Below are positions 6,736 through 64,000 of a stretch of 64,000 nt of DNA, one piece after another (position 1 is the stretch's first letter; every line of letters starts with the position of its first letter). The stretch comes from an uncultured Chryseolinea sp. (GTDB taxonomy: Bacteria; Bacteroidota; Bacteroidia; Cytophagales; Cyclobacteriaceae). The position numbers were made by a program, and so were the translations under genes. Under the pieces are notes generated by a model that saw only the letters and a program-made list of their open reading frames with translations, was not told where the DNA came from and searched no databases. Location: positions 2,878 through 66,877 of the forward strand of contig CAZAHL010000001.1 in NCBI GenBank assembly GCA_964484845.1. Direction: 5' to 3'.

Positions 6736-6804
6736 AAATTTAAATTTTTAGAGTTTGATGTAAGGATTCCTTTTGCGAAAAAAAATAACGATATGCCTAC
6801 CTTG

Positions 6805-41601: not shown

Positions 41602-42219
41602 ATGGCCGGCGATTCTTCTCCCCACCCTACCAACCAACATCACACGGATGAGGCTCTGATAGAAATGCTTTGCTCTGGATGTCATCAGGAGGAAGCCTTG
41701 GAGCACATCTTTCAAAGATACCATTTGCGACTTTTCCGCATCACAAACAATGTTTTGCAAGACGAAGACCTCTCGAAAGACCTTGTTCAGGACATCTTGA
41801 TTGATCTGTGGAACCGCCGCGCTGACTCCCAAATTAAAACGCTGTCAGCCTATCTCCTGAGAGCAGCTAAGTTTCAGATTCTGAAGCATCTTAGAAATGG
41901 CAAGCTTCGCGAAAAGCACCTCAAAACAATGGAGACAATTCAGTTTGTTAACCAGACTGAAGATTCTGTTAATTTCGCTGAGTTGGAGCGGGTATTGAAC
42001 GATAGCGTGGAGCAACTACCTCCACGATGCCGGGAAGTTTTTGTTCTTAGCCGTTTTGAGAACATGACCAATAAAGAAATTTCTGAAAAACTGAAAATAT
42101 CACCCAAGACAGTAGAAGTGCAGATCACCAAAGCGCTTTCATTTTTGCGCACACAGATGAATGGTAGCGTGTTTACGCTCTCTATGTTGCTGACCTTTTT
42201 CAAGCAGGATTCCTTTTAA
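41602..42219 (+). CDS. ECF-family RNA polymerase sigma factor of the GH43/GH105 SusCD locus
   Basis: The start is taken at ATG 41602. Region 2 reads DLVQDILIDLWNRR. Region 4 reads LPPRCREVFVLSRFENMTNKEISEKLKISPKTVEVQITKAL. A FecR-like gene follows. Confidence 0.85.
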   Translation: MAGDSSPHPTNQHHTDEALIEMLCSGCHQEEALEHIFQRYHLRLFRITNNVLQDEDLSKDLVQDILIDLWNRRADSQIKTLSAYLLRAAKFQILKHLRNGKLREKHLKTMETIQFVNQTEDSVNFAELERVLNDSVEQLPPRCREVFVLSRFENMTNKEISEKLKISPKTVEVQITKALSFLRTQMNGSVFTLSMLLTFFKQDSF

Positions 42220-42290
42220 ATCTCAAAAAACTCAGACCTGGAGTAGGGGATCGTTAACGTTTGCGGTACTATCTATTAGTACGAGAGCAA

Positions 42291-43253: not shown

Positions 43254-43423
43254 GATTTATGACGAGTACTTACGATACTTCATAGTACACCGCGGTTTTA
43301 CTTCGACTGAAAGGTCATGGAAAGCCGACAATAGAAAAAAGTCCGGATCCTCTTGAACTTGGCGGGACATCGGGAGCCGGACTAACGCCGAAATAAATAT
43401 CATTTACTTCAACCCTTCAATTT

Positions 43424-46400: not shown

Positions 46401-46720
46401 AGGTTGACTACTGGACTCCAGAGAATCCTACGAACGATTATCCCCGGCCCAGTTCTGCCACCAGCAGGGCCAGTTCGCGATACTATTCCACGCTGCAATA
46501 TGTTGACGGGTCATTCCTGAAGATTCGTGATGTTACGTTGGCTTACACGATTCCGACAAGCATCTCCGAAAAAATTTCCCTGTCCAGAGTACGCTTCTAC
46601 ACGACGGCCAAGAACTACTTCGTCTGGAGCAAAATAGATCCGTATGATCCGGAGCGGGGCGGCAACCTAAGCTTCCCGATGACTAGACAACTCGTGTTCG
46701 GCGTCAACATTGATCTTTGA
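43424..46720 (+). CDS. susC: SusC/RagA-family TonB-dependent transporter with N-terminal STN signalling domain
   Basis: 1098 aa. It has an STN-like region, a carboxypeptidase-regulatory-like domain ([37 protein letters not shown]), a plug ([29 protein letters not shown]) and a beta-barrel ending in an aromatic-rich terminus. Confidence 0.9.
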   Translation: [1098 protein letters not shown]

Positions 46721-46748
46721 TAATTACTTCATTAAGACACATAATATA

Positions 46749-48449: not shown

Positions 48450-48491
48450 TGGCCTTTTCGGAATCGGCGTCGACCGATTATTATATCAGAG

Positions 48492-48519
48492 GCCGGAAAC
48501 AAAAGTTTCCGGCTTTTTT
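48492..48519 (+). terminator. Strong Rho-independent terminator
   Basis: GCCGGAAAC (48492..48500), loop aaaa, GTTTCCGGC (48505..48513), then TTTTTT (48514..48519). It begins 43 bp after the susD stop. Confidence 0.8.
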
Positions 48520-48552
48520 CCTTAAATCAATAACACAATTGTGAGGTAAATA

Positions 48553-50175
48553 ATGAAACGATGTTTTCAAATTATTCCTAGTTTGATGGTTGCGCTTTTT
48601 TTGCCACCCATGATCTATGCGCAACAGTCGGCAGTGTGGATTTCGGATCAGGGAAATGGCACCTATAAGAATCCAATACTTCACGCTGACTATTCAGACC
48701 CGGACGCGGTGCGTGTAGGCGAAGACTATTATATGACTGCCTCAAGTTTTGACGCAATTCCTGGACTTCCCATCCTGCATTCCCGGGATTTGGTAAACTG
48801 GTCTTTGATCGGCCACGCGCTAAAGCGGCAGCCACCTTTTGATCACTTCGAAAAAACACAACATGGTAATGGGGTATGGGCGCCGGCCATACGATACTAT
48901 AAAAATGAATTCTACATCTATTATCCAGATCCTGATTTCGGAATCTATCTGACCAAAGCAAAAAATCCGGCGGGGCCCTGGTCTGAGCCGGTATTGGTTG
49001 AAGGTGGAAAAGGATTGATAGATCCGTGCCCTCTCTGGGATGACGATGGCAACAACTACCTTGTCTATGCTTATGCCGGTAGCCGCGCAGGAATAAAAAG
49101 TGTTCTTGTTGTAAAGAAGCTCAGTGCTAATGGCGTTAGCGTTCTGGATGCCGGCGTAATTGTATACGATGGACATGAGCAGGACCCAACGATCGAAGGA
49201 CCTAAATTCTATAAGCGGAATGGCTACTATTACATCTTCGCGCCTGCTGGCGGTGTGGCTACCGGTTGGCAGTCCGTCCTGCGCTCGCGGAATGTATATG
49301 GTCCCTATGAACGCAAAGTGGTGATGGATCAGGGTAATACTTCGATCAACGGCCCTCACCAGGGTGCCTGGGTAGACACACCTTCAGCTGAGGACTGGTT
49401 TTTGCATTTTCAGGATAAAGGTGCGTATGGCCGTGTGGTACACCTGCAACCTATGAAATGGGTGAAAGACTGGCCAGTGATCGGTTCAGATCCGGATGGC
49501 GATGGTAAGGGTGAACCAGTGCTAACCTTCCGAAAGCCTTCGGCCACAACCAATGCACTACTGCGCACACCACTTGAATCAGACGAATTCAGTTCCCTTG
49601 ACCTTGGCCTTCAGTGGCAATGGCAAGCCAACCCCAAGGCTACGTGGGTCTTTACGGGCAAGGAAGGATATCTGAGGTTTTATGCCGCCAAAGTGCCGGA
49701 CAGCGCCCGTAATTACTGGGACGTTCCCAACATTTTGCTTCAGAAGTTTCCAGCGGAAGAATTCCGCGTTACCACCCGTTTAACATTTAAGCCTAATAAT
49801 AAGATTGAGAACGAGAAGGCGGGACTCATCGTCATGGGTCAAAGCTATGCCTATCTTGGGTTGAAGAGCACAAAAGAAGGTGTGCAACTGATTTACACAA
49901 CCTGCCTCAAGGCTGTAAACGGTACGGCGGAAACGGAACAAGTTTTAGCATCGTTCCGTGAGCCTGTAATCTACTTAAGGGTGAACGTATCACCGGGCGC
50001 GAAATGCTCCTTTAGCTACAGTCTGGACAATAAACGTTATACGGTGATTGATAGTCTATTTACGGCCGAGGCTGGGAAATGGATTGGTGCCAAGGTCGGT
50101 TTGTTTTGTACTCGTACGCAAACAACCAACGACTCAGGCCATGCGGACGTCGACTGGTTTCGTGTGGAAAAGTAG
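48553..50175 (+). CDS. Glycoside hydrolase family 43 (beta-xylosidase/alpha-L-arabinofuranosidase type) with C-terminal beta-sandwich domain
   Basis: 540 aa with a signal peptide. GH43 blocks present: NPILHADYSDPDAVRVGEDYYM (catalytic Asp), LIDPCPLWDDDGN, PTIEGPKFYKRNGYYYIF (catalytic Glu), HQGAWV. Confidence 0.85.
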   Translation: MKRCFQIIPSLMVALFLPPMIYAQQSAVWISDQGNGTYKNPILHADYSDPDAVRVGEDYYMTASSFDAIPGLPILHSRDLVNWSLIGHALKRQPPFDHFEKTQHGNGVWAPAIRYYKNEFYIYYPDPDFGIYLTKAKNPAGPWSEPVLVEGGKGLIDPCPLWDDDGNNYLVYAYAGSRAGIKSVLVVKKLSANGVSVLDAGVIVYDGHEQDPTIEGPKFYKRNGYYYIFAPAGGVATGWQSVLRSRNVYGPYERKVVMDQGNTSINGPHQGAWVDTPSAEDWFLHFQDKGAYGRVVHLQPMKWVKDWPVIGSDPDGDGKGEPVLTFRKPSATTNALLRTPLESDEFSSLDLGLQWQWQANPKATWVFTGKEGYLRFYAAKVPDSARNYWDVPNILLQKFPAEEFRVTTRLTFKPNNKIENEKAGLIVMGQSYAYLGLKSTKEGVQLIYTTCLKAVNGTAETEQVLASFREPVIYLRVNVSPGAKCSFSYSLDNKRYTVIDSLFTAEAGKWIGAKVGLFCTRTQTTNDSGHADVDWFRVEK

Positions 50176-50185
50176 CGTTTAACTT

Positions 50186-51400
50186 ATGACATATCTCATG
50201 ATCGTCAGACGAATTATAACTTCCATCCTGCTATTGGCTATTTATCTGCCTGCATTTGCACAAGCCAAAAAGCAGCAAGTGTCAGCCAAGGCAGCACTCT
50301 CAGTACGAATGGCCGAGTCGGACATGATCCGGAATCCTGACCCGGCGAAACTGGATTTCGTGAAGGAACCACGGTGGAACTACACGAACGGCCTTGTGTG
50401 TAGCGCCCTTGAGCAGGTCTGGAAGAAAACCGGTGACGTTAAATTCTACAATTACATTAAAAACTATGCTGATCAAATGATCAGCGAGGATGGCACGATA
50501 AAAAACTACAAGCGGCAGGACTATAACATTGATAAGGTAAACTCGGGCAAGTTCTTGTTTGCCCTGCGCGAGAAAACCGGTGATCCGAAATACGAAAGAG
50601 CGATTCGACTGCTGCGGGAACAAATGCGTACACATCCTCGTACTTCCGAAGGAGGGTTTTGGCACAAGCAAATCTACCCACACCAGATGTGGTTAGATGG
50701 TGTATATATGGGAGCGCCATTCCTGGCACAATTTGCCAGGGCGATGAACGAGCCTGCTGCCTTCGATGACGTTGCCTTGCAGATCCGTTTGATCGACAAG
50801 CACACCTATGATTCAGCTTCGGGCCTTTTCCACCATGCTTGGGATGAATCGCGCGAACAGCCGTGGGCCAACAACGTCGATGGTAAGTCACCGCACGTTT
50901 GGGGCCGTGCGATGGGTTGGTTCGCGATGGCGCTCGTTGATGTGCTTGACTTTTTTCCAGCAGATCATCCGGAACAAAAAGAGATTTTGAAAGTGGCTGA
51001 TAAAATGGCGCAGGCATTGGTCCGTTATCAGGATGCAACGTCTGGTGTGTGGTATCAGGTTGTGAACCTGGGGACACGCCCCGGAAACTACCTTGAGTCG
51101 TCAGCGTCGACCATGTTCTCCTATTTCCTGATGAAGGGTACGATGCGTGGGTATATCGATAAAAAATACACTGCCGCAGCGCGAAAGGGTTATGAGGGTG
51201 TACTCAATAATTTCGTCAAAACAGATGATCAAGGACTTGTCAGTATTACCCAAGCATGTTCAGTCGCGGGTCTTGGCGGTAACCCGTACCGCGACGGTTC
51301 ATTCGACTACTACATCAATGAACCTAAGCGTGACAATGACCCCAAGGCTGTAGGTCCGTTTATTATGCTTGCACTTCAGTTCGAGGCGCTGGGTCAATAA
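50186..51400 (+). CDS. Glycoside hydrolase family 105/88-type unsaturated glycuronyl (rhamnogalacturonyl) hydrolase
   Basis: 404 aa with a signal peptide. YteR/YesR-like blocks present: WNYTNGLV, HQMWLDGVYMGAPFLAQ, LFHHAWDE, WGRAMGWFAMALVDVLDFFP. Confidence 0.8.
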   Translation: MTYLMIVRRIITSILLLAIYLPAFAQAKKQQVSAKAALSVRMAESDMIRNPDPAKLDFVKEPRWNYTNGLVCSALEQVWKKTGDVKFYNYIKNYADQMISEDGTIKNYKRQDYNIDKVNSGKFLFALREKTGDPKYERAIRLLREQMRTHPRTSEGGFWHKQIYPHQMWLDGVYMGAPFLAQFARAMNEPAAFDDVALQIRLIDKHTYDSASGLFHHAWDESREQPWANNVDGKSPHVWGRAMGWFAMALVDVLDFFPADHPEQKEILKVADKMAQALVRYQDATSGVWYQVVNLGTRPGNYLESSASTMFSYFLMKGTMRGYIDKKYTAAARKGYEGVLNNFVKTDDQGLVSITQACSVAGLGGNPYRDGSFDYYINEPKRDNDPKAVGPFIMLALQFEALGQ

Positions 51401-51626: not shown

Positions 51627-53858
51627 TTAGTGATGTCCGTGTAATGCAGCGGGTCTAGTAAAGTCCAAAACTTTCAACTGTATAAGTTCTAATTTATCGC
51701 TACCCTGATGCACTCTTAAAAATTGATTGGATTGTATATTGGTAAAAACCTGAACCCGTCGGGTTGGGTGCCATTGAATGGTAATTGTATCGATAATAGC
51801 AGCACGGCCAATACCGATTTCTCTTCGCAACGGAGATGCACCAAAGCTGCCCCCTGAATTAACATCGCGGTATACATGTCTCGTCCTTTCATCTTCCCGA
51901 AAAGTAACTTTAATGGAAGACCCGATAATGTTTTGATGATCTTTACCGACAAGGTCCAGTGTGATCCAATTATTCTTTGCATTTTGTCCGGGATTCAAAT
52001 AAAAAGCGTTATGAAAAGAATCTCCTTTGTAGGCTCCACCCATTTCTATATAAATATCCTGATCACCGTCATTATCAAGGTCAGCAAATGAAATGGCATG
52101 TCCCTTTTGCAAATGTCCCACACGCGCGGGTTTTGTAACATCAATAAATTTTTTGCCATTGACATTTTTAAACAACTTATTTGGTATGATAGATTCCAAC
52201 TCCGGATTTCCAGTACCCAAATAAAAATCAAGGAACCCGTCGTTGTCAATATCACCGAAATTGGCTGACATCGCAAACGCAGTTCGTTTTGTTCCGCTCT
52301 CTGCTGATACATTCGTGAAAGTGCCATCACGATTATTTCGATATAACATTACAGTGCCAGAAGTGCCTTTAAAAATTCTCAGGGCTTCTTCTGCGCAATA
52401 AGAAGATATAGATTTATCAAATGTAAAGTCACCTGCAAAAATATCAAGCCACCCATCGTTGTCATAATCCCAAAACCAGGTTGGAAAAGTTCTATCAGAG
52501 TCGCTACTCAGACCGGCTTTGTCCGTTACATCTTCAAACACCGGTATCTCTCCTTGAAGGCCTTTGTTTTTTAAAAGGAAACGCTTGCCCGATAAGCTTG
52601 TAACGAAGATGTCTTTCCATCCATCGTTATTATAATCGCCGGAGGCAACACCTTTAATGAAACCCAGTACATCACAGCTTGCCTCTTTTGCTACGTTTGT
52701 AAAAGTATTATCCTGATTGTTCAAGTACAGCTCACAAGGATGAGTTCCAGATAACGCATTCCCCTCCCATGTTTCATTGCCTATGAAAACATCTACCCAG
52801 CCATCATTATTAAAATCGTTCCATGTCGCAGTTTGCGTGGGATGAAACGATAACAGGCCGCTTTGAGTAGTAACGTCTGAAAATGTTCCATCGCCGTTGT
52901 TCATTAGTAGTGAATTGGGTTGTTTGCCATAATTCCCACGCAGCCACGCACCGCGCAAAACAAAAACATCTTTAAATCCGTCGTTGTTAAAATCCATCTG
53001 CATCAGATTTAATCCTCCCGTGATATCTTTTAACTTTGATTCCTCCGACTGATCGATGAAATTTCCTTCGCCATCATTTCTAAAATAATGCATCTCATCA
53101 TTAATGTCCCAGCTTGAGGTAATGATATCCAGGTAGCCATCGTTATCAAAATCATCGATAATAGTCCCGCCCGCCATATTATTTATATCTAAACCGAGGT
53201 CTGATGCAATGTCTTTGAAAGGCATAACAAACGCAGAGTCCTCGCTAGCCCCTAGTCCCGGAATCAAAACCGTGTTTGGCACATTCCAGGGATATTCTCC
53301 AAGTGTCATGTAAGCAAGATTAAGAAGCCATCGGTATTCCATGTTATCAGGATATTCGTCCAGCAACTCTTCATATATACGGATGGCATTACGGGAGCCT
53401 TCCGGTATTTTATGAATGCCAGTGCCTTGAATCGGAAGTATACATGTTTCAGAAGTATGATTGGCTACACAATTTTTTCTCTCTCCCATTCGAAGGTATG
53501 CAAGGGCTAATTGCACCTTTAGTTTATCCATACCTTTTATTCCCTCTTTGTTTATTTTTTCTACCTGCGCTTCCAGTAAGGGAATTGCGTCCTCTTCCCG
53601 ACCAGCCGCGATTAGCGCATAACTCTTGTTAAAAGTAAGCATCATTTTATCCTGCTTACTTTGAGTAGCATTAATCAATGAGTCGTAATATGCTATCTGC
53701 GGAATCGATGCGTAGTAATTATCCGGACGGTTATAGTCATCCCGTTGTTGTTTCAGAAGTTGGATCATTTCCTCATGAGATGAGGGCGTGGAATTACAGG
53801 AGAGAAGACTGGAGAAAAAAAAGACAACTAATAATTGGTTTAATTTAATTCTTTTCAT
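51627..53858 (-). CDS. CRTAC1-family lipoprotein (FG-GAP/VCBS + UnbV_ASPIC), paralog 3
   Basis: 743 aa with lipobox LLSC. It is colinear with the paralogs at 3386..5644 and 6805..9057, for example TTQSGLLSFHPTQTATWNDFNNDGWVDVFIGNET. The UnbV_ASPIC tail reads NNWITLDLVGKDHQNIIGSSIKV...VNSGGSFGASPLRREIGIG. Confidence 0.85.
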   Translation of the reverse strand: MKRIKLNQLLVVFFFSSLLSCNSTPSSHEEMIQLLKQQRDDYNRPDNYYASIPQIAYYDSLINATQSKQDKMMLTFNKSYALIAAGREEDAIPLLEAQVEKINKEGIKGMDKLKVQLALAYLRMGERKNCVANHTSETCILPIQGTGIHKIPEGSRNAIRIYEELLDEYPDNMEYRWLLNLAYMTLGEYPWNVPNTVLIPGLGASEDSAFVMPFKDIASDLGLDINNMAGGTIIDDFDNDGYLDIITSSWDINDEMHYFRNDGEGNFIDQSEESKLKDITGGLNLMQMDFNNDGFKDVFVLRGAWLRGNYGKQPNSLLMNNGDGTFSDVTTQSGLLSFHPTQTATWNDFNNDGWVDVFIGNETWEGNALSGTHPCELYLNNQDNTFTNVAKEASCDVLGFIKGVASGDYNNDGWKDIFVTSLSGKRFLLKNKGLQGEIPVFEDVTDKAGLSSDSDRTFPTWFWDYDNDGWLDIFAGDFTFDKSISSYCAEEALRIFKGTSGTVMLYRNNRDGTFTNVSAESGTKRTAFAMSANFGDIDNDGFLDFYLGTGNPELESIIPNKLFKNVNGKKFIDVTKPARVGHLQKGHAISFADLDNDGDQDIYIEMGGAYKGDSFHNAFYLNPGQNAKNNWITLDLVGKDHQNIIGSSIKVTFREDERTRHVYRDVNSGGSFGASPLRREIGIGRAAIIDTITIQWHPTRRVQVFTNIQSNQFLRVHQGSDKLELIQLKVLDFTRPAALHGHH

Positions 53859-53906
53859 TTCTAAACATCAAACTTTATAAAGAGTCCAAACCGTTTCTCA
53901 GCTACA

Positions 53907-56900
53907 TCACCGGTTATGCAACTTAATGTTTGCGATGCTTTTATCGCGCACAAGTACCCGACTGGAAGATGAAAGATAACTGCTCCCATAATAAAACTCG
54001 TGTTTTCTTTTCTTGCCATTCTTTAATTCGATGATAGACGAATTTGTTAGCCTGTCGACTCGAACCAAATTCTCTTTGGTATAAAGAGAAGCAGATGATT
54101 TCGCGAAAATCTTTAGGCTATCTCTGTTTTGAGTTGCCAGAAACAATTGAGTCCCATCATTGAGTGTAAGATTCGCTAGTCCTTTAGCATCGCCATCAAC
54201 AAAAAAACCAGATTGAGTCACAGTCATGGACTTAAAATTTCCTAGCCCGTCACCTCGAAGATAATTTCCAATTCCGGCATCGTAAAAACCCGATAATGTT
54301 TCCGAAGCATAGGAGTTACCGATTGTAAGGACATCAAGATTCCCGTCTTCATCTACGTCTGTTATAGAAACGCCATACATAGGAGAAAACTGAGCTTCAA
54401 CAGGAAGTTCCTTTATCTTAAAATTATTATCTCCTCTATTTTCAATATAAACAGACGCAAAAAGAGTACTTTTCAAAACCATGGCATCCTTAAGCATGGC
54501 TTCTGGCATAAGGTCCTTTATTCCCATCTCGCCATATTGCGAATAACGTTGAGCAACGCCTCTTAACTTCGGTATTTGTCCTGTCAACGTTTCCCTGGGG
54601 TGAACCGGATATTCTTTCCCCTGAATATACCTGCAAAGGATAGCATCCACTGATCCATTGTCGTCAAAGTCCTTTGCCGATACAGTAACCGGTTCAGTTA
54701 CGGACGCCCTATACACAGAATTTAGTCCAAGATTCCCAGCGATGTAGTCCATGTCTCCGTCATTATCAAAATCTCCTCCGGAGATGCTGTTCCACCATCC
54801 TGATGAATCTGGGATTTTTATGGACGTAAAAGACTTCCCCGCATTATTGATAAAAAACGTAATGGGCATCCATTCGCCCACGAGTGCAAGATCCATCCAG
54901 CCATCGTTATTTATATCAGTCCATAGAGCAGAAGTCACCATACCAGCTTTGCTTAATGACGGAGAAAATTTAGACGTTTGATTCTCGAATTTTCCATTAC
55001 CGTCATTTATTAATAGATAACTCTCAGGGATTTCAGGATAACGTATGGGGACAATTCTGCCCCCTACAAACAGATCGAGATCACCATCCTGATCAAAATC
55101 ATTCGCTACTACACAACTGCCACTGCTTAAAATCTTCGGCAATGCCGTTGTATCATACTCCAATTTGCCCCTACCGCTATTTCTGTAAAACCGGTCCTGA
55201 TATTTATCTGTATCATTTTTGAATTCAGAACTTCCGCTGACACAATATAAGTCCAGATCAGTGTCGTTATCCGCATCAAAAAGAATCAAGCCCATATCTT
55301 CAGAATCTTTTTCGGGAAGGGAGTCCAACTTGAACGAATTATTTTTTCCCTGGATAAAAACTTTAGCGCTATTAAAAGCTGCGCCTCCAATGATAAAATC
55401 TTCGAGGCCATCACTATTTATATCACCGACTGCAATTCCAGGTCCTCCTTGAGAATGCTTATGAGGCAATAACAACTGTCCTTCTAAAAAATCTATAAAA
55501 TCTTTTTCTTTGTGCTTATAGGGCTTACCTAGATTATTTATTTGTTTGAATATCGGCATCGGGGAAATTGAGTTGGGCATTTCTTTTCCCATTACTCCAT
55601 CCTTCTCATTTAGTGCAATTACTTGATTAACTCCTACATTTTTCAGAACCTGACTTTTTCCACTTAACCAAACAACTTTTATGGAATCCACTTTATCAGA
55701 CTTACTTTTCCCCAGTCCGAAATGCTCAAAATTCTCAACGGTTGATTTATAACCCCGTTGAGTTTGATGCTCGGAATAGTACATGTTACCCCTCTGATAC
55801 ACCCAGAGTTTTGCTCCAAATCCTTGCAAGTTGCCTTTTTCTCCTGAAAGCTTAATCCGCAGGAAATTATTTTCAGTTTTACCTTCTTTGTTAATCAAGT
55901 TATTCTGGTAAATAAAAGCTTCATCATTGATGTTATTCGTTACTAAGTCGAGATCTCCATCATTATCAAAATCGGCGTATGCAGCTCCATTTGAGTAAGA
56001 AGGTTGATCCAGTCCCCATTCACCTGCTTTATCTGAAAAAGTTAAATCACCATTATTTTTGAAAAGAAAATTTTGTTTTTTAACACCCATTAATTTTTCA
56101 ACTTCCTGACGGATCGTATTTAATCGGTTCTTGTCGGTGCTGAACATGGCCAGCTCTTTACTGTAGGCAATGAAATCCTGATCAGTAATATCTTTGCGAT
56201 AACCGTTTCCCACAAACAAATCGCGATACCCATCATTATCAAAGTCAGCCAGTAAGCTGCTCCAGCTCCAGTCCGTTGCATATATACCTGCCAAATATCC
56301 GATATCACTAAATGTGTTGTTCCCGTTATTGATTTGTAAAACATTCCGGATGTATTGATCCTGATAGCCTTTACTACGAAAAAGCATAAACCGGTCATAG
56401 CCTATGTTTGAAAACATTGTCTTCTGGCGTAAATTATCATCTGGCATCATGTCCAATGCCACAATGTCGTTCAAGCCATCATTATTAATATCTGCGATAT
56501 CCATTCCCATTCCATTTTGCTCCTGATGTTTCAACATAGTCGTAATGTTGTTGGAGAATGAATTCTTTTGAGTGTTGATTAAGAGATTGTCATTGGATAT
56601 AAAATCATTTGCGATGTACAGGTCAGGATAGCCATCTCTATTAAGATCATTTACCACCATTCCCAACCCCCAACCTTCTAATTGAATTCCTGCCTCCATT
56701 GATACATCCTTAAAAAAAGGTAATCCATTAACTACACCTTCATTTCGATAAAATTTATCAACACTTTTTGCAGTCCCATTATTTTTCATTCCCACCGCCT
56801 GATTTCGATTAAAATTCTCCAGGGCATTGGTTAAAAGATACATATCGAGATCGCCGTCAAGATCGTAGTCGAGAAAGGAAGCTTGCGTTGCGTAACTGGA

Positions 56901-57419
56901 ATCAGCAAGACCGGTGGTCGCTGCTACTTCTTCAAACTGAGGATTACCGTCTTTATCATTTCCTTTATTCAGAAAAAAAAGATTGGGAACCGATGGGCTA
57001 TTTATATACGGCTGAATCGTTGAAACGTATATGTCCAAAAGTCCATCCTGATTAATATCTGTTATAGCGACTCCGGTACACCATAAATTAGTTTCTATGG
57101 ATGACTTCTCAGTGACGTCTTCGAATTTAAAATCTCCTCTATTAAGGTAAAGCTTACTGGAGACCATATTCCCGGCAAAGAAAATATCTGTTAACCCATC
57201 ATCATTAACATCGCCAACACCTACACCGGCACCGTTGTATATATATTCGAACGTAAGAACATTAAAACTATCGTTTTCTGTCAATTGATTGTTAAAAGTG
57301 ATATTGGTTTCAGAGGATGGAAGAAGCTGGAATAATCTATTCTTTTCGGAGGAATTACAGCATATCATTAACAACGCAAATATGCCGATAGAAATAATTT
57401 TTGATAAAGTTTGATACAT
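53907..57419 (-). CDS. Large lipoprotein: FG-GAP/VCBS propeller, UnbV_ASPIC module, second FG-GAP/VCBS propeller
   Basis: The start is moved to MYQTLSKIISIGIFALLMICCNSS (57419). There are many DxNxDGxxD motifs (DVNDDGLTD, DINQDGLLD, DYDLDGDLD, DINNDGLND, DFDNDGDLD and others). The central module reads NNFLRIKLSGEKGNLQGFGAKLWV...GYKSTVENFEHFGLG. Confidence 0.85.
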   Translation of the reverse strand: MYQTLSKIISIGIFALLMICCNSSEKNRLFQLLPSSETNITFNNQLTENDSFNVLTFEYIYNGAGVGVGDVNDDGLTDIFFAGNMVSSKLYLNRGDFKFEDVTEKSSIETNLWCTGVAITDINQDGLLDIYVSTIQPYINSPSVPNLFFLNKGNDKDGNPQFEEVAATTGLADSSYATQASFLDYDLDGDLDMYLLTNALENFNRNQAVGMKNNGTAKSVDKFYRNEGVVNGLPFFKDVSMEAGIQLEGWGLGMVVNDLNRDGYPDLYIANDFISNDNLLINTQKNSFSNNITTMLKHQEQNGMGMDIADINNDGLNDIVALDMMPDDNLRQKTMFSNIGYDRFMLFRSKGYQDQYIRNVLQINNGNNTFSDIGYLAGIYATDWSWSSLLADFDNDGYRDLFVGNGYRKDITDQDFIAYSKELAMFSTDKNRLNTIRQEVEKLMGVKKQNFLFKNNGDLTFSDKAGEWGLDQPSYSNGAAYADFDNDGDLDLVTNNINDEAFIYQNNLINKEGKTENNFLRIKLSGEKGNLQGFGAKLWVYQRGNMYYSEHQTQRGYKSTVENFEHFGLGKSKSDKVDSIKVVWLSGKSQVLKNVGVNQVIALNEKDGVMGKEMPNSISPMPIFKQINNLGKPYKHKEKDFIDFLEGQLLLPHKHSQGGPGIAVGDINSDGLEDFIIGGAAFNSAKVFIQGKNNSFKLDSLPEKDSEDMGLILFDADNDTDLDLYCVSGSSEFKNDTDKYQDRFYRNSGRGKLEYDTTALPKILSSGSCVVANDFDQDGDLDLFVGGRIVPIRYPEIPESYLLINDGNGKFENQTSKFSPSLSKAGMVTSALWTDINNDGWMDLALVGEWMPITFFINNAGKSFTSIKIPDSSGWWNSISGGDFDNDGDMDYIAGNLGLNSVYRASVTEPVTVSAKDFDDNGSVDAILCRYIQGKEYPVHPRETLTGQIPKLRGVAQRYSQYGEMGIKDLMPEAMLKDAMVLKSTLFASVYIENRGDNNFKIKELPVEAQFSPMYGVSITDVDEDGNLDVLTIGNSYASETLSGFYDAGIGNYLRGDGLGNFKSMTVTQSGFFVDGDAKGLANLTLNDGTQLFLATQNRDSLKIFAKSSASLYTKENLVRVDRLTNSSIIELKNGKKRKHEFYYGSSYLSSSSRVLVRDKSIANIKLHNR

Positions 57420-57490
57420 ATTGCCAAGTGAATACTTGTATCCCGTTTGTTTTAAGATTAATAATAAAGGGGAAGATAGTTCACCCATAA

Positions 57491-57522
57491 ATAAAACAAA
57501 AGGAGCGGGTTTGTCCCACTCC
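57491..57522 (-). terminator. Intra-locus Rho-independent terminator or attenuator between susD and the FG-GAP gene
   Basis: The minus strand reads GGAGTGGG-ACAAA-CCCGCTCC, an 8-bp stem including one G-U pair, followed by TTTTGTTTTATTT. Confidence 0.55.
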
Positions 57523-57547
57523 TTTTAGAATTTAAGAATCTATATTT

Positions 57548-59071
57548 TTAGAAGTCCGGGTTTTGATCGGTCTGTGAAAGTTTAGAATTATTATCAATTT
57601 CCTGTTGTGGAATTGGTGCCAAAGCATGTTTAGGTGAATAATAAGAAATAGGTTCAGAGGGAAGCTTATTTAACGATCTCCATCTTAATAGATCTCTGTT
57701 TCTTATTTGCTCACCGGCGAGTTCTACTCTGCGTTCATGAACAATCGCACGGAATACTTCGGCCGGAGTATTTACCGGATAATTTACTGTTGGGTATGGA
57801 GGCATCTCAACACCTGGTCTTGATCTGACATCATTTAGTAAAATAATGGCTTCCCCATCATTTCCCAGTGCATTTTCACATTCCGCCAGACTCAGTAACA
57901 CTTCCGTAAAGCGAATCATTCTCATGTTAATTCCAGATCGTGCCTCCTCATCTGCTGCCTTGTATATACGTTGGTATTTTTTCCAGCTGACTTTCGGATC
58001 GTTACCCTGCATATCGGTAATGGTCTTTGTGTTATTATGATATTTATCCCCTATAAAATAGAACGACTCCGTATAACGCGGATCATCTTTTAGATCGCCT
58101 TTTGCAACCTTCTCATATTCTCCCAGCAGGGACACGGATGGAATTACATTTCGCCATGCATTAGGGCCGTACTCCTGACCACGAAAAGTAACTTCAGTCT
58201 GAGTACCCTGACCGCTACCATCCCAACTGGAGCCACCGAAGTCGTAGGAAAAAGCAACTTCGAAGAGAGACTCTGCATTGAACTCCATTTCCTCTCTGAA
58301 ATTTTCTATGTAGGGAATCGTTTTCCAGGTACTGAATTCACCGGTGCTTATTATTTCTTTCAGCAACGGCTTAGCTAGATTATAATCGCCTTGCTGCATA
58401 TGAGCCCGTGCCAACATAGCTTGCGCTGCTTGTTTACTAGCCCTTCCAATGTTAGCATTGTCATATTCCGATTTAAGTAGCAATGACGTTATCGCGGATT
58501 CAAGATCAGCGATGATCAAAGCATATACTTCATCGACAGTTGCTCTGGGCTTATCCTCTCCGACCGCTTTGACATAAGTATCCATAAGCGGTACACCGCC
58601 AAATAAAACTACCAAGTCCATATACGCCATCGCTCTGAGAAATTTTGCTTCGCCTACCACCCTCGTCTTCATAGGTTCGGTAGCAGGTGCGGTGGCTAAT
58701 GGGACTTTTTCAATTACCTGATTGGCCTGATGAATAAGTCTGTACCATCCTTTCCAAACACTGTTAAGGAGGGAGTTAGTAGCATTGTGTGTTCCCGTTA
58801 ATAATTGCGCTCGGGCAGTTTCCAACTGACCTCCTCCAGAACCCATGTCATCTGAGCGTAAATCGTGAACGAAGAAATATTCACGGCACACGAGGTCCAG
58901 GCTTTGCAAACTGCTATACACCGCGTTGACGGCGCCTACGATCTGAGTGTCATTTTTATAAAATGTATCGGGAGTAAATTCATTTGGATTTTGCTTATCC
59001 AGTATATCTTCTTTGCAGGAGAAGCAAAATGCAAACATCCCTATTGCTGTAAGTATTATTTTTCTTTTCAT
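57548..59071 (-). CDS. susD: SusD/RagB-family nutrient-binding lipoprotein
   Basis: 507 aa with lipobox-like FCFSC. SusD blocks present: FLRAMAYMDLVVLFGGVPL, LLSLAECENALGN, ERRVELAGEQIRNRDLLRW. Confidence 0.85.
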   Translation of the reverse strand: MKRKIILTAIGMFAFCFSCKEDILDKQNPNEFTPDTFYKNDTQIVGAVNAVYSSLQSLDLVCREYFFVHDLRSDDMGSGGGQLETARAQLLTGTHNATNSLLNSVWKGWYRLIHQANQVIEKVPLATAPATEPMKTRVVGEAKFLRAMAYMDLVVLFGGVPLMDTYVKAVGEDKPRATVDEVYALIIADLESAITSLLLKSEYDNANIGRASKQAAQAMLARAHMQQGDYNLAKPLLKEIISTGEFSTWKTIPYIENFREEMEFNAESLFEVAFSYDFGGSSWDGSGQGTQTEVTFRGQEYGPNAWRNVIPSVSLLGEYEKVAKGDLKDDPRYTESFYFIGDKYHNNTKTITDMQGNDPKVSWKKYQRIYKAADEEARSGINMRMIRFTEVLLSLAECENALGNDGEAIILLNDVRSRPGVEMPPYPTVNYPVNTPAEVFRAIVHERRVELAGEQIRNRDLLRWRSLNKLPSEPISYYSPKHALAPIPQQEIDNNSKLSQTDQNPDF

Positions 59072-59117
59072 CGTTTTAATATTTTCTTGAAAAATGATTC
59101 AATCATTTCGTCGATTG

Positions 59118-62100
59118 TTAAAATCCTACCTGTATTCCGACCATTATACTTCTCGATTGAGGAAACTGACCATAGTCAATACCTTGGACTAGCGACTCGG
59201 TAAGTGGAGGTTTAAAATTCTCATTGGTCCTATTACCTACTTCCGGATCATATCCACTCTTATATTTTGTAAGCGTTAACAAATTTTGAGTTGTAACATA
59301 AATCCGCAGTTTCGTAAGAGTACTGTTAGAGATGGAAGAAAAAATACTAGAGGGTACACTAAACCCTACTGTTAAATTTTTGACCCTGAAGTAGGAGCCG
59401 TCTTCCACGAATCGATCCGATGCTCTGCCATTTCCATTTGGATCTCCGGAAATAGCACGCGGAACATTTGTATTCGTATTTTCAGGCGTCCATCGGTTCA
59501 ATACTGCAGTCCCTGAATTAAACAATCGGCTCATACCTTCTAACTCATATTTCACAACGCTGTAGATTTCATTGCCAGAAACGCCTTGCAAGAAAAGACT
59601 AGCATCAAAATTCTTCCATGCTCCGGAAAAATTAATCCCGTATGAAAAGTCTGGAAGAAAATGCCCAATGTTTTGCTTATCCTCACTATTTAACACACCG
59701 TCACCGGTTACATCTTTAAATCTAATATCGCCTGGTCTGGCATTTGGTTGCATGGCCGTTGATTCGCCCACCTGAAAGATACCATCTGTTATGTAGCCAT
59801 TAAAGAATCCAATGGGCTGTCCAACTTTGGTTTGTGTTAAAAAATCTCCATACCAATCACCCGATGGAATTGTTGCTCCTTCACCACCCAGATCTAATAC
59901 CTTGTTTCTTACCACGGAGATATTGCCTGACAAATTGTAGGTGAAGTCCCCTTGAGATTTATTATATCCCAACATAAGTTCGAAACCTTTATTCTCAACT
60001 TCCCCCACATTCGAAGTTGGAGGAGTGTCATAACCAAATGACAATGGGATTGGACGGGGTAAGATCATATCCTTTGTCCTGGTATTAAAATACTCTGCAG
60101 TTAACGTTATTTTGTTATTTAAGAAACCAAGATCGATACCTACATTTGCCATATAGTTACTCTCCCATTTCAGTGTGGCATCGGCCAAACCTCTTATGGT
60201 GTAGCCTGCTGAAGAAGTAGAGCTGCCCTGGTTGAATTCATAAATTTGCTTCCCAGAAATTGTCGATTGATAGTCATACTCACCGCGGGTTAAATAATTT
60301 CCTGTGAGTCCATAGCTACCTCTAAGTTTAAATTCACTTATCACGTCACTGTTTTTAAGGAATCCTTCTTCACTTAATCTCCAGCCAACCGAAACTGCGG
60401 GGAATGTTCCCCATCTTTTATCGGGTGCAAATCTTGATGAGCCATCCCGACGAATAGAAGCTCCAATTAAATATTTATTCTCATAATCATAATTTACTCT
60501 GCCTACATATGAAATCAGTGCGCTCTCACTCCTGTCCCCTTCGAAACTCACATTTGCCAATGCTACGGGTTCAGTAATGTCATTTGATTGAGTGTTATTA
60601 CCCAGTCCCGTTATTTGGCTAAAATTGAACGTCTGCTGTTCAGCAACCACTATTGCATTAATTGTATGTTTACCAAAGGTTTTGTTGAAACTCAATTGAT
60701 TGGTAAGAATGGTAGAGACAAAATTCTGTTGGTTCATATTCAAGTTGGCGTTTGCTCTGGTCGAATATCCACCAGCGCCAGAATTATATGCAGGTAAATG
60801 TGTCTTCTGCGCATAATCCACATAGTCAACACCTCCTTGAAATCTATAGCTTAAAAACTCAAATAATTTTACATCAACATATGCATTTCCCAAAAATTTA
60901 AGTCGTTGTTGGTTTTGCTTATCTAGTGCGGCCACTCGTACAGGATTTTCAGGGTCAGAACCATCCAGGCCTTGTGAACCAAAGAATCCACCATTGTTGT
61001 CAGGATTGTGGACAGGAAAATATGGGGAGCTTCTGATGATATGCTGGAGCTGCGTTCTACCCCCTGCATTCTGTTCAACTTTTCTTTCATCAAATGCCAC
61101 ATAAAAATTCTGTCCAAACGTAATTCGCTTACTGATATTATGATCGGAATTGAATCGCGCATCGCCCCTCCGATACCCAGCGCCCTTCATAATACCTTCT
61201 TGGTCAAAATAACCCACCGAAGCAAACATTCTTGACTTATCCGAGCCGCCAGACAACTCAGCCTTGTGTTGTTGAATTGGAGCGGCTCTGAACATTTCAT
61301 CCTGCCAATCGGTATTGGTTTGTCTGAAAGTTTGAGAGGTTGTAGAGTTAATAGGTTGATCTAAACCATTTTTAATTCTGGTAGGAACACTTGAACCTAT
61401 AATAACATCCGGATCAGTAGGTTTTTTTGTTTCTTGTTTATAGATGTCGGAATTGGTCATCAAATCTGTCGCATAACTAATGTATTGATCTGTATTTAAC
61501 AGGTCTAACTTTCTCCACGCCTGTTCGACACCGTAATAACTTTCAATGCTAACGCTTAATTTCTTGTTCGTACCTTTTTTAGTGGTTATCAATATAACAC
61601 CATTTGCAGCGCGTGATCCATAAATAGCTGCAGCACTTGCATCCTTTAGAACTTCAAGCGATTCGATATCCTTTGGATTAATGCTATTTAAATCTCCGGT
61701 AGGAAATCCGTCTATTACATATAAAGGGTTAGCATTATTTACGGTACCGACACCACGGATTCTAACAATTGGAGCGGCTCCGGGAGCTCCATTATTTACC
61801 ACTGTTACACCTGCTACTCTTCCTTGAAGTGCTTGTCCGATGTTAACGACTGGCTGAACTCCGATTTCTTCAGAAGAAACAGAAGATATTGCGCCGGTTA
61901 CAGAAGTTCTCTTTTGTGTACCGTAACCAACTACAACCACTTCTCCTAATTGTTTAACATCAGGAACAAGTTTGATATTAATATTTGTTTGGTTCCCAAC
62001 TACGATCTCCTGTGTGGTGTACCCAATAAAACTAATGACAAGCACGGTGTTCTCATCTGGGACACTCAGAGAAAATTTACCTTGTGCATCTGTAGTAGTA

Positions 62101-62654
62101 CCCACAGTACTTCCCTTTACTAATACATTTACTCCTGGAAGTGGATTATCTACTTCATCTGTAAGAACACCAGAAACAATAATATCCACGGGGCGCATAT
62201 ATTTTTCAATTACCAGTTCTTTATCCATAGGAGCAGGAAAAATCATTGTAGTACTTATCGTGGCATCGGGTTCGTTCTTGTTTACAAGCTTTGAAGGCTC
62301 TTGAGGCAAGATTGAATATGTTTTTGCATTTATTTTTTTAAATATTAATCCCTCTGGTTCTAATAGACGGGAAAGTGTATTTTCAACTTTACCTCTATAG
62401 TTTACAGGTACTTTTACTTTTTTATCTTGCAACGTGACAGGCTCGTATAAAAATGAGACGTTGTAGTGCGATTTGATTTCGTTCAATACCTCAAGAAGCG
62501 GTCGATACTGATCTTCTGTCTCTCGTTGCTGATAGAGCCGTTGTGCATTAGCATAAACCTTTTCTTGGGCATGACTGAACTGCGGTACGGAAGAAATTAC
62601 CACCATCAGTAAGCACCAAAATAGGTTATAATAAATTGTGTAATGTTTATTCAT
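59118..62654 (-). CDS. susC: SusC/RagA-family TonB-dependent transporter with N-terminal STN signalling domain
   Basis: 1178 aa. It has an STN-like region (LLEVLNEIKSHYNVSFLYEP...), a CarbopepD_reg-like domain (VSGVLTDEVDNPLPGVNVLVKGSTVGTTTDAQGKFSL) and a plug (LEVLKDASAAAIYGSRAANGVILITTKKG). The terminal residue is Phe. Confidence 0.9.
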   Translation of the reverse strand: MNKHYTIYYNLFWCLLMVVISSVPQFSHAQEKVYANAQRLYQQRETEDQYRPLLEVLNEIKSHYNVSFLYEPVTLQDKKVKVPVNYRGKVENTLSRLLEPEGLIFKKINAKTYSILPQEPSKLVNKNEPDATISTTMIFPAPMDKELVIEKYMRPVDIIVSGVLTDEVDNPLPGVNVLVKGSTVGTTTDAQGKFSLSVPDENTVLVISFIGYTTQEIVVGNQTNINIKLVPDVKQLGEVVVVGYGTQKRTSVTGAISSVSSEEIGVQPVVNIGQALQGRVAGVTVVNNGAPGAAPIVRIRGVGTVNNANPLYVIDGFPTGDLNSINPKDIESLEVLKDASAAAIYGSRAANGVILITTKKGTNKKLSVSIESYYGVEQAWRKLDLLNTDQYISYATDLMTNSDIYKQETKKPTDPDVIIGSSVPTRIKNGLDQPINSTTSQTFRQTNTDWQDEMFRAAPIQQHKAELSGGSDKSRMFASVGYFDQEGIMKGAGYRRGDARFNSDHNISKRITFGQNFYVAFDERKVEQNAGGRTQLQHIIRSSPYFPVHNPDNNGGFFGSQGLDGSDPENPVRVAALDKQNQQRLKFLGNAYVDVKLFEFLSYRFQGGVDYVDYAQKTHLPAYNSGAGGYSTRANANLNMNQQNFVSTILTNQLSFNKTFGKHTINAIVVAEQQTFNFSQITGLGNNTQSNDITEPVALANVSFEGDRSESALISYVGRVNYDYENKYLIGASIRRDGSSRFAPDKRWGTFPAVSVGWRLSEEGFLKNSDVISEFKLRGSYGLTGNYLTRGEYDYQSTISGKQIYEFNQGSSTSSAGYTIRGLADATLKWESNYMANVGIDLGFLNNKITLTAEYFNTRTKDMILPRPIPLSFGYDTPPTSNVGEVENKGFELMLGYNKSQGDFTYNLSGNISVVRNKVLDLGGEGATIPSGDWYGDFLTQTKVGQPIGFFNGYITDGIFQVGESTAMQPNARPGDIRFKDVTGDGVLNSEDKQNIGHFLPDFSYGINFSGAWKNFDASLFLQGVSGNEIYSVVKYELEGMSRLFNSGTAVLNRWTPENTNTNVPRAISGDPNGNGRASDRFVEDGSYFRVKNLTVGFSVPSSIFSSISNSTLTKLRIYVTTQNLLTLTKYKSGYDPEVGNRTNENFKPPLTESLVQGIDYGQFPQSRSIMVGIQVGF

Positions 62655-62670
62655 AATTATCGGGTTTGGG

Positions 62671-63660
62671 TTATTTTATTTTGGAAGAAAACGTCACTGT
62701 ATTATCGTTCTTTTTAGTTACCTCTATGTTAAAGGTCTCGGCAATAGCAAATAATATATCTTCCGTTGATGCAGAAGATATCTCTCCTGAGAGCTGTCGA
62801 TATTTTAATTCTTCATTCTGGAAAGAAACTTGAAGGCCGTATGTATCGTGAAGAATTTGAGCAAGCTCTTCTAAAGTCATTTTATCAAAAAATAATTTAC
62901 TTCTCACCCATGAGGTATACTGTTTATCTTCAACTGCCCGTTTAGATAACTTATTTTTTTTCATGGTTGCCAACTCACCGGGCTTCAGAATTACAGTACG
63001 ATCTGCTTCATTGCTTACGTTTAGCTGAACTTTTCCTTCCGTTAACAATACCTCAGATCCGTGCTCCCGGCTTTTTACGTTGAATTTTGTTCCCAGAACT
63101 TCAACGTTTAAGCCTTCACGAGTATGGACAATAAACTTTTGATGATTCTTTGTATGCTGCACGGCAAAGAAACCTTCACCATCGATCCAAACTTCGCGCG
63201 GCTGTGATTCAGACCAATTTTTAGAATATTGAATGGTTGAATTTCCATTCAGCACTACAGATGATTCATCGGGTAATTTAATAGTTAACCGTTGTCCATA
63301 ATTTGTGTGAACCTCGGTAAGCGCGTTCACGGCTGGTGCATTACTTTTTATTTTAACATTCAGATACCAGACTGCGGAGGAAACAAATAATATTAAAATT
63401 GCGGCAGCAATTTTGTACAACAAGAGATCACGTTTAAAATGTGGAATAACTTTTTGTTGTTTGTTAAACCTTAACTGATTGGTAATCGCAACAAACATGT
63501 CTTTTTTAAGATTTTCTTGCGCGTGTGGGGACACACCATCCAAACCAGAATTATCCTTTAATGCGCTTTCCCAATAACTTTCCAGTATTTCTTTTTCCCG
63601 TTCGGTGGCAGCTCCACTTTTTAACCGGTTTATAAGACGCGCCAATTCACTTTTATCCAT
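62671..63660 (-). CDS. FecR-family anti-sigma factor / sensor
   Basis: 329 aa with one TM helix (LLLYKIAAAILILFVSSAVWYL) and the FecR block (KLPDESSVVLNGNSTIQYS...IDGEGFFAV). Its stop lies 16 bp upstream of the susC start. Confidence 0.85.
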   Translation of the reverse strand: MDKSELARLINRLKSGAATEREKEILESYWESALKDNSGLDGVSPHAQENLKKDMFVAITNQLRFNKQQKVIPHFKRDLLLYKIAAAILILFVSSAVWYLNVKIKSNAPAVNALTEVHTNYGQRLTIKLPDESSVVLNGNSTIQYSKNWSESQPREVWIDGEGFFAVQHTKNHQKFIVHTREGLNVEVLGTKFNVKSREHGSEVLLTEGKVQLNVSNEADRTVILKPGELATMKKNKLSKRAVEDKQYTSWVRSKLFFDKMTLEELAQILHDTYGLQVSFQNEELKYRQLSGEISSASTEDILFAIAETFNIEVTKKNDNTVTFSSKIK

Positions 63661-63786
63661 GAAGCATAGTTATATATAGGGAAGAAGGATGCCACCCCCT
63701 AACACCCTAAATCGATTGCGGAATTTTTTTTTAAATGTTCTTTTCCTAATTTCATCCTTCGTAAAAGATTTCACAACCTAGATTCT

Positions 63787-64000
63787 ATGACCGAAAAAGA
63801 CTTCGAGCGGATATACAATATTCTCTGGAGTAAGCTCTATAGACTTGCCTATAGCTATTTTCGGGACAAAACAATGTCTCAGGAGATCACACAGGATGTG
63901 TTTGTAAAATTATGGCTAAAGCGCGATTCCTTAGACGGCATTGTAGACATAGAAGCCTATCTTTTTAGGTCCGTAAAAAATAAAATTTACGATCAGTTTG
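63787..64000 (+). CDS. ECF-family sigma factor, N-terminal fragment (runs off the window), divergent from fecR
   Basis: From ATG 63787 it reads MTEKDFERIYNILWSKLYRLAYSYFRDKTMSQEITQDVFVKLWLKRDSLDGIVDIEAYLFRSVKNKIYDQF, which is ECF region 2. Confidence 0.75.
   Translation, partial: MTEKDFERIYNILWSKLYRLAYSYFRDKTMSQEITQDVFVKLWLKRDSLDGIVDIEAYLFRSVKNKIYDQF

Follow-up and report, generated by a model that had tools for sequence, protein, structure and literature searches.

In soil, sea and gut alike, Bacteroidota acquire complex nutrients mainly through loci built around a SusC/SusD pair, which are commonly interpreted by way of the carbohydrate-active enzymes (CAZymes) that they encode. In polysaccharide utilization loci (PULs) controlled by an extracytoplasmic function (ECF) sigma factor and its anti-sigma factor, the genes run in the order sigma, FecR, SusC with an N-terminal extension, SusD and lipoproteins. 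The locus described here belongs to an uncultured Chryseolinea sp. (contig CAZAHL010000001.1) and lies in a stretch of 64,000 nt, hereafter the window, to which all coordinates refer unless another locus is named. It shares this gene order but encodes no recognizable glycoside hydrolase (GH), lyase, esterase, sulfatase or peptidase, its cargo being two large propeller lipoproteins of the CRTAC1 family, here called A and B. SusC/SusD loci without CAZymes are already known and are no surprise to a specialist: the Pus loci of Flavobacterium are of this kind and serve phosphate utilisation (PMC8115612), although they carry phosphatases and phosphodiesterases, and the words propeller, FG-GAP and VCBS do not occur in PMC8115612. 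What is new is a known import chassis combined with a highly conserved and very widespread class of cargo in a fixed slot after susD.

In the list of open reading frames (ORFs), five consecutive genes are found on the minus strand in the order fecR, susC, susD, A and B, with intergenic gaps of 16, 46, 128 and 48 bp, and the end of B lies 226 bp from a convergent GH88 gene. The features of the locus are as follows:

63787..64000, plus strand: N-terminus of an ECF sigma factor, first 71 codons, cut at the window end; divergent from fecR
62671..63660, minus strand: FecR-type anti-sigma factor, 329 aa (FecR 1.5e-15, FecR_C 1.5e-11)
59118..62654, minus strand: SusC-like TonB-dependent transporter, 1178 aa, with an N-terminal extension of about 159 aa (TIGR04056, 929 bits)
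62301..62456, minus strand: STN-like segment of SusC, residues 67-118 (Pfam STN, E 4.3e-4)
57548..59071, minus strand: SusD-like lipoprotein, 507 aa (SusD_RagB 1.6e-30, SusD-like_3 4.1e-24)
57497..57527, minus strand: terminator-like hairpin with U-run in the gap between susD and A (13-bp stem, -20 kcal/mol, z -4.6)
53907..57419, minus strand: protein A, lipoprotein of 1170 aa, consisting of propeller 1, a UnbV_ASPIC beta-domain, propeller 2 and a C-terminal beta-rich tail
51627..53858, minus strand: protein B, lipoprotein of 743 aa, consisting of a helical TPR-like N-domain, a calcium propeller with seven motifs and UnbV_ASPIC

All six genes were found where an earlier note on this DNA had placed them, five on the minus strand and a divergent sigma gene from 63787, and Pfam and NCBIfam agree with the identities given there. 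The ECF sigma and FecR-type anti-sigma genes adjoin the transporter gene, the arrangement that marks trans-envelope signalling. The sigma fragment matches TIGR02985 (Sig70_bacteroi1, the Bacteroidetes type; 3.8e-18) and Sigma70_r2 (2.8e-11), and a divergent sigma gene of 136-167 aa is likewise present in two related loci (L086 and the JGI contig of P0002). The susC and susD genes are adjacent on one strand, as in other loci of this type. In SusC, Pfam and NCBIfam find TIGR04056, Plug, CarboxypepD_reg/CarboxypepD_reg_2 and the barrel. The earlier note had called the whole a complete trans-envelope signalling chassis; the sigma factor, FecR, SusC and SusD are indeed present, but the STN domain is found only below threshold (20.5 bits versus a cut-off of 28.4 bits), in the segment of the N-terminal extension that precedes CarboxypepD_reg. 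The SusC of the neighbouring locus has an equally sub-threshold STN score, and both SusC proteins show a weak FecR_C-like match in the N-terminal segment. SusD starts with a lipobox (FCFSC, followed by KEDILD) and thus with an acidic stretch of the surface-export type after the cysteine.

The nearest solved SusC chain is 8aa4_A (3.7e-178), with RagA scoring lower, and the closest PDB pair for SusC and SusD together is one Bacteroides pair, 8aa4/9sje, which is labelled only 'SusC homolog' and 'SusD homolog'. We take this pair to be glycan-importing; it was judged too distant for a substrate to be read from it.

The hairpin between susD and A has counterparts in three orthologous loci, where a hairpin followed by a T-run, different in sequence, occupies the matching position (L001, about 9933-9975; L086, about 9899-9935; L085, about 9945-9985). 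This points to different expression levels of susCD and the propeller genes, and the element possibly serves as an attenuator within the operon or stabilises the RNA. No riboswitch or other RNA family that would hint at the ligand was matched at E <= 1.

The claim that the locus is hydrolase-free held in every search made. Pfam and NCBIfam (E <= 0.01) give no GH, polysaccharide lyase (PL), carbohydrate esterase (CE), sulfatase, peptidase, phosphatase or other enzyme family in the operon, and no GH, PL, CE or sulfatase is found among the PDB profile matches at E <= 1 or among the top 50 Foldseek matches of the AlphaFold models of A and B. The earlier note had looked to structure prediction and fold searching for a hidden catalytic site; none appeared, the best match being CRTAC1, and a hidden catalytic domain in A or B is rejected within the reach of Pfam, NCBIfam, PDB phmmer and profile searches and Foldseek.

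The only significant solved relative of A and B, by sequence and by fold, is mouse CRTAC1 (9etn), with Foldseek values of 1.4e-26 (TM score 0.73) for B and 2e-21 for A. Integrin alpha propellers come next in the profile searches and are not significant (E 0.017-0.02). Among the fold matches of B, CRTAC1 is followed by aldos-2-ulose dehydratase 4a7y (6.8e-09) and then by the lectin-type propeller UmbA4 (9oee), with generic propellers and Bacillus phytases (about 5e-06) further down. Vertebrate CRTAC1 shows the same succession of a calcium FG-GAP propeller and UnbV_ASPIC that is found, with both families above the Pfam cut-offs, in A and in B, in keeping with the earlier description of the cargo as FG-GAP/UnbV_ASPIC lipoproteins only. 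The differences are considerable, however: identity is only 18%, A and B are lipoproteins, A has two propellers around one detected UnbV_ASPIC and long conserved helical insertions, and B adds an N-terminal TPR-like domain with a Cys/His motif. The function of CRTAC1 gives no clue to the role of the bacterial proteins, and we know of no enzymatic activity of CRTAC1.

Calcium blades of the Dx[DN]xDG type have been described for integrins, a fungal lectin, a PL11 lyase and PilY1 (Rigden et al., PMC3123361). They are shared by the propeller enzymes YesW (PL11, eight blades), 4a7y and Bacillus phytase, of which 4a7y and the phytases are weaker fold matches of the kind given above. A and B as PL11 lyases were considered and rejected, since they have seven motifs per propeller versus eight blades, and since no PL11 member (YesW/YesX) is found in Pfam at E <= 0.01, among PDB profiles at E <= 1 or among the top 50 fold matches. 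In the full-text literature searched, which includes few subscription journals, nothing was found that ties UnbV, ASPIC, VCBS, FG-GAP or CRTAC1 to SusC/SusD or PULs, and no paper was found that describes the module or assigns a role to any bacterial member of the CRTAC1 family; as far as this literature goes, the earlier statement that these proteins have no established function stands.

The longest ORF for A spans 53907..57488 (1193 aa), and the start at 57419 corresponds to M24. This start, already preferred in the earlier note, yields the lipoprotein signal peptide MYQTLSKIISIGIFALLMIC followed by C, and the homologs start there too. Pfam finds FG-GAP_3 (2.2e-66) and UnbV_ASPIC (2.6e-17, residues 556-624) in A. 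Counted strictly as Dx[DN]x[DN]GxxD, there are 13 calcium-blade motifs in A, of which seven lie in its first half and six in its second, and seven in B. The AlphaFold model of A (predicted local distance difference test, pLDDT, 72.7) is weaker than that of B and places the two propellers on either side of UnbV_ASPIC, with the beta-rich tail behind. It is least confident at residues 296-446 (pLDDT < 50), a region of helical insertions in propeller 1 (56082-56534, minus strand) that is among the best-conserved stretches of the orthologs and holds the motifs KHQEQNGMGMD, DMMPDDNLRQK, TDWSW and NGYRKDITDQDF; these insertions are a candidate functional or partner-binding region. A full tandem duplication of A is unsupported: Pfam gives a single UnbV_ASPIC stretch, with no second one after propeller 2, BLASTP gives no alignment between the C-terminal 82 residues and the first UnbV_ASPIC region, and the two halves are related only through the propeller repeats.

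Homologs of A number more than 8000 and are named 'VCBS repeat-containing protein' or, in names derived from KEGG, 'enediyne biosynthesis protein E4'. Searched exhaustively with HMMER, 1.84 billion cluster representatives yield 4,364 clusters (50% identity) of the family at E <= 1e-30, and the 150 best clusters, all at E <= 1e-231, are mostly full-length double propellers of 1,000-1,200 aa. In 102 members of the family, the positions that are at least 90% conserved fall mostly in calcium-blade motifs. Between classes, and between PULs that differ in their enzymes, A homologs retain 35-47% identity and motifs such as TDWSW.

Homologs of B likewise number more than 8000 and are named 'CRTAC1 family protein'; among the named matches, the closest homologs of both A and B come from Chryseolinea, Ohtaekwangia and Chryseosolibacter, which marks the source as a Cytophagales bacterium of soil. 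B matches FG-GAP_3 (2.3e-43) and UnbV_ASPIC (7e-10, residues 645-714), with weak TPR matches at the N-terminus. An NCBIfam match to XAC2610_fam stays below its cut-off (32.7 versus 35 bits) and was taken as generic FG-GAP similarity. The AlphaFold model of B (pLDDT 86, predicted TM score 0.87) shows a helical N-domain at about 27-185, a propeller at about 229-620 and a beta-sandwich at about 631-725 over the UnbV_ASPIC match. At the end of the TPR-like domain, residues 130-149 (53362-53471, minus strand) form the motif N-C-x3-H-x4-C-I-x-P-I ... G-x-H, in which C130, H134, C139 and H149 are invariant and which is kept in paralogs and in homologs from Roseivirga, Flavobacterium and Muricauda; the motif may represent a disulfide hairpin or a site for metal binding. 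A second invariant motif of B is RVGHLQKGH. Lipobox signal peptides are present in A, B and all their orthologs, many with acidic residues soon after the cysteine; in the A (CNSSEK) and B (CNSTPSSHEE) of the window, this acidic stretch of the export type is weak.

Relatives with 70-89% identity in A carry the same six genes in flanks that differ, and more distant relatives carry part of the set:

JGI contig of P0002: A 89% identical; all six genes, sigma divergent; 3' neighbours a response regulator and MacB/FtsX
L086: A 76%; all six genes, sigma divergent; 3' neighbours alkaline phosphatase, response regulators and GH3
Ohtaekwangia koreensis (L001): A 70%; all six genes; 3' neighbours convergent esterases
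L003, a metagenome-assembled genome (MAG): A 70%; all six genes
Xanthocytophaga flava: A 60%; sigma-FecR-SusC-SusD-A, B absent; 3' neighbours convergent nucleotide-sugar genes
Adhaeribacter aquaticus: B 59%; SusC-SusD-B only

Judged by these gene neighbourhoods, the locus is a self-contained cassette that is not tied to the adjacent GH43/GH88 PUL, and a functional link between the two is rejected because that PUL does not recur as the neighbour of the cassette among relatives. The neighbouring locus (41602..51400) contains GH43 with GH43_C2 and Glyco_hydro_88, which agrees with the GH43/GH105 cargo reported earlier, as the Pfam Glyco_hydro_88 model also covers GH105. The two lie side by side and converge across a gap of 226 bp, and both stand under ECF sigma/anti-sigma control, so the present locus might be an incomplete PUL that leans on its neighbour in a joint pectin or arabinan system. 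However, the neighbour has its own sigma factor, FecR, SusC and SusD, and relatives of the six-gene cassette have other genes at the 3' side; a joint system is therefore considered very improbable. In Chryseolinea lacunae (L084, 10001-13534), an A homolog with 58% identity to the A of the window does not adjoin SusC/SusD and has as neighbours an MFS transporter, GDPD phosphodiesterases, a BNR_2 protein, aminotransferases and inositol-1-phosphate synthase genes.

A scan of one genome per GTDB species gave at least 525 stretches that encode relatives, of which the best 80 were surveyed. These loci come from Cytophagia, Chitinophagia, Saprospiria, Flavobacteriia and Bacteroidia and from one Ignavibacteria MAG; their ORFs were called with 10-kb flanks and labelled by phmmer against the proteins of the window. 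SusC/SusD genes stand in the gene run of the A homolog in 54 of the 80 loci and elsewhere in the 10-kb flanks in 11 more, directly divergent in several. Where the run has a gene upstream of the first A, this is immediately SusD in 49 of 64 loci, and A often occurs as two or three paralogs in tandem. Beside tandem A paralogs, an ORF of about 200 aa without a Pfam match recurs in seven loci (for example, L035:13102-13776, L063:9342-9956 and L068:9325-9933). The 3' end is complete in 44 SusCD-linked loci: in 17 of them A/B-type genes are the only cargo, in five a PAP2 protein and/or the ORF of about 200 aa is the only addition, and the remaining 22 have other genes, CAZymes among them. SusD followed by UnbV_ASPIC propellers without a CAZyme is thus a common arrangement throughout the phylum. 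The earlier note had held the locus to be a candidate for an undescribed system; no paper describing it was found, but the arrangement is very common in Bacteroidota and not special to the window.

The hydrolase-free state is not a fixed trait of the A family, because half of the complete SusCD-linked loci carry other genes, among which CAZymes occur. Near A homologs are found GH92, GH127, GH31/melibiase-like proteins, GH26, GH43, GH9, GH97, GH1 and sulfatases, and, outside the CAZymes, RhaT, SSF, FGGY kinases and regulators of the NrtR, AraC and LacI types. Since A homologs co-occur with so many unrelated sets of CAZymes, an accessory role fits better than one fixed enzyme specificity.

The operon could also take up something other than a carbohydrate, such as a peptide, part of a protein, a chelated metal, a cofactor, a phosphorus compound or an aromatic or humic compound, for which the propellers would be high-affinity capture proteins in the way that BtuG and XusB serve other TonB-dependent transporters. 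The lack of a CAZyme in the operon would agree with this, SusC/SusD-type loci for non-glycan nutrients exist in the form of the Pus loci (PMC8115612), and paralogs of B are tied elsewhere to TonB-dependent receptors that are not SusC and to Meth_synt_2-like, CMD and DUF3179 genes. Against it, of the related loci that have additional genes, roughly half encode CAZymes and sugar transporters or kinases (RhaT, SSF, FGGY and GH families), which places the family overall in carbohydrate settings, the RNA-family search gave nothing that hints at a cofactor, and the SusC and SusD of the locus are nearest the presumed glycan importer 8aa4/9sje, with RagA lower. On balance, a non-carbohydrate ligand is thought distinctly improbable.

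The commonest additional partner of A in the survey is a PAP2 protein of about 445 aa, the largest cluster among the unlabelled neighbours, which is found in 17 of the 80 loci and usually directly after A (for example, L011:13630-14946, L022:13449-14786, L059:13488-14849 and L075:13387-14736). It is closely homologous to the vanadium-dependent haloperoxidase (VHPO) of Zobellia galactanivorans, the iodoperoxidase 4cit (E 5.6e-116). The N-termini of many copies are of the lipoprotein type, and loci with this partner are spread throughout the A tree. With six VHPO homologs as phmmer queries, none was found among the six-frame ORFs of the 64 kb of the window. Redox neighbours of A also include a multihaem cytochrome c (L051) and, in L069, two proteins of the Redoxin/AhpC-TSA type. 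In Larkinella (L088) and Spirosoma (L087), homologs of B with 57% identity sit with Meth_synt_2-like, CMD (AhpD-like) and DUF3179 genes, a SusD-family gene being absent from the flanks shown, and the Larkinella homolog is also flanked by TonB-dependent receptors and a PAP2/VCPO-like protein.

The window itself holds a second CRTAC1-family cluster, which forms one run on the minus strand (2855-10568) and does not involve SusC/SusD. Its genes are:

10050-10568, minus strand: AhpC/TSA peroxiredoxin
9367-9915, minus strand: ORF of 182 aa without a Pfam match
6805-9057, minus strand: paralog of B, 57% identical to B, all key motifs kept
5671-6735, minus strand: Meth_synt_2-like gene
3386-5644, minus strand: paralog of B, 56% identical to B, all key motifs kept
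2855-3310, minus strand: anthrone-oxygenase-like gene

Near the end of this cluster lie genes for an ECF sigma factor (1060-1602, minus strand) and a HEAT-repeat protein (201-971, minus strand), and a SIMPL gene on the plus strand (2067-2762) stands between these two and the cluster. Proteins of the B type are not specific to PULs, because the paralogs of B sit here in a SusCD-free cluster beside redox genes. Taken over all loci, the CRTAC1 family recurs beside enzymes that handle peroxide or halide. An enediyne cassette with E4/UnbV is reportedly involved in making an iodinated intermediate, which is taken as a lead only. UnbV/enediyne E4 belongs to the same UnbV_ASPIC domain family, and the automatic JGI/KEGG name 'enediyne biosynthesis protein E4' is attached to many A homologs; the likeness seen is one of domain and name, and no polyketide synthase or enediyne cassette is present here.

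These neighbours lend weight to the alternative that A and/or B are unrecognised enzymes, at the cell surface or in the periplasm, which would substitute for CAZymes and cut or modify the polymer by means of a propeller face, the insertions of A or the Cys/His site of B, possibly through oxidative or halide-dependent chemistry together with vanadium haloperoxidases or peroxiredoxins. A 4cit-like homolog that follows A across the whole A tree, the PAP2/VCPO-like and CMD proteins and TonB-dependent receptors around the Larkinella B homolog, the run of B paralogs with a peroxiredoxin and an anthrone-oxygenase-like gene, and the enediyne name on A homologs would all be consistent with such chemistry. 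In addition, conservation is high across contexts in an enzyme-like manner: the orthologs of A share invariant polar residues (H298/E300) and the motifs DMMPDDNLRQK, TDWSW and NGYRKDITDQDF, and B has the invariant N-C-x3-H-x4-C...H and RVGHLQKGH. Propeller enzymes are among the fold matches (aldos-2-ulose dehydratase, AUDH, and the phytases), and the 17 complete loci that carry nothing besides A/B-type proteins would then have their enzymes after all. However, no catalytic family is matched by sequence, profile or fold, the sole significant relative is CRTAC1, family-wide conservation lies mostly in structural calcium motifs, and the operon of the window itself is without a haloperoxidase or redox gene. 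An enzymatic role is the strongest alternative, though held to be less likely than not.

The reading that we favour, tentatively and at somewhat less than an even chance, is that of a self-inducing SusCD importer in which A and B are outer-membrane (OM) lipoproteins, probably surface-exposed, that capture the ligand for SusD and SusC. The SusC barrel with its SusD lid would take up the ligand, and its passage would be sensed by the FecR-type anti-sigma factor through the N-terminal extension of SusC. The response of FecR would free the divergently encoded ECF sigma factor and thereby raise transcription of the operon. A, with two CRTAC1-like modules, and B, with a TPR-like domain and one CRTAC1-like module, would be calcium-loaded and anchored in the OM, most likely on the cell surface, where they would serve as capture and hand-over parts of the SusCD complex, encoded in the gene slot that is usual for surface glycan-binding proteins. 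As the operon is without a depolymerase, the ligand would be importable intact or be processed by enzymes encoded elsewhere. The gene content, the arrangement of domains, the lipoprotein signals, the conserved cassette, the close adjacency of SusD and A throughout the phylum and the lack of a recognizable catalytic domain are observed; what we infer are the surface location, a binding rather than a catalytic role, the route of signalling and the nature of the ligand.

A capturing role is suggested by the position after susD, the lipoprotein signals and a conservation dominated by calcium motifs, and also by the nearest relatives, which are binding proteins (CRTAC1 and UmbA4, with the integrin propellers non-significant). 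Surface glycan-binding proteins of the SusE/SusF type resemble A in that A follows susD directly, has a lipoprotein signal and shows no detected catalytic domain, but the fold of A is different and unrelated, and A is far more conserved across loci with different enzyme sets. BtuG and XusB, which capture vitamin B12 and siderophores, respectively, are propeller lipoproteins that act for TonB-dependent transporters, and their genes likewise lie beside that of the transporter. They differ in that neither is matched among the top hits of A and B, and their loci, as we understand them, are not SusD-containing and ECF-regulated.

Several observations count against a purely capturing role. Surface glycan-binding proteins are usually poorly conserved, and the conservation of A (35-47%, with TDWSW), as seen in the alignments, appears unusually high for such a protein. 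The paralogs of B, which keep 56-59% identity in differing contexts, look more like carriers of a conserved activity or partners of a conserved protein. The weak acidic stretch in the A and B of the window makes their surface exposure less certain. Calcium propellers can be enzymes, 4a7y being the second fold match of B and Bacillus phytases appearing as well, and conserved polar motifs are present in A and a conserved Cys/His motif in B. The recurrent redox or peroxide neighbours, with the VHPO homolog in 17 of 80 loci, peroxiredoxins and the multihaem cytochrome, hint at chemistry more than at simple binding. The probability that is left after the importer with capture lipoproteins, the enzymatic role, the non-carbohydrate ligand and the joint PUL falls to something not considered here.

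A bolder proposal, which we hold to be rather improbable, is that UnbV_ASPIC/CRTAC1 lipoproteins constitute a novel group of proteins, catalytic or co-catalytic and coupled to TonB-dependent import, that attack recalcitrant organic matter at the cell surface by non-hydrolytic, possibly peroxide- or halide-dependent means, with SusCD importing the products. If true, it would explain the CAZyme-free loci, VHPO and peroxiredoxin as the most frequent partners and the strong conservation of the family.

For the biology of Bacteroidota, the finding means that a large protein family fills the slot after susD across the phylum, often without any enzyme. As generic capture or scaffold proteins, A and B would add a standard component to the known machinery of uptake; as enzymes, or as partners of VHPOs, they would point to non-hydrolytic attack on polymers. 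The size of the family, its conservation, its place behind susD and its association with haloperoxidases and peroxiredoxins make this a concrete and testable question, and the ECF sigma/anti-sigma switch makes the operon easy to induce experimentally. An answer would for the first time give functional access to the CRTAC1/UnbV family, whose members include a human protein of cartilage and the nervous system and, by Pfam and KEGG naming, a conserved protein of enediyne biosynthesis.

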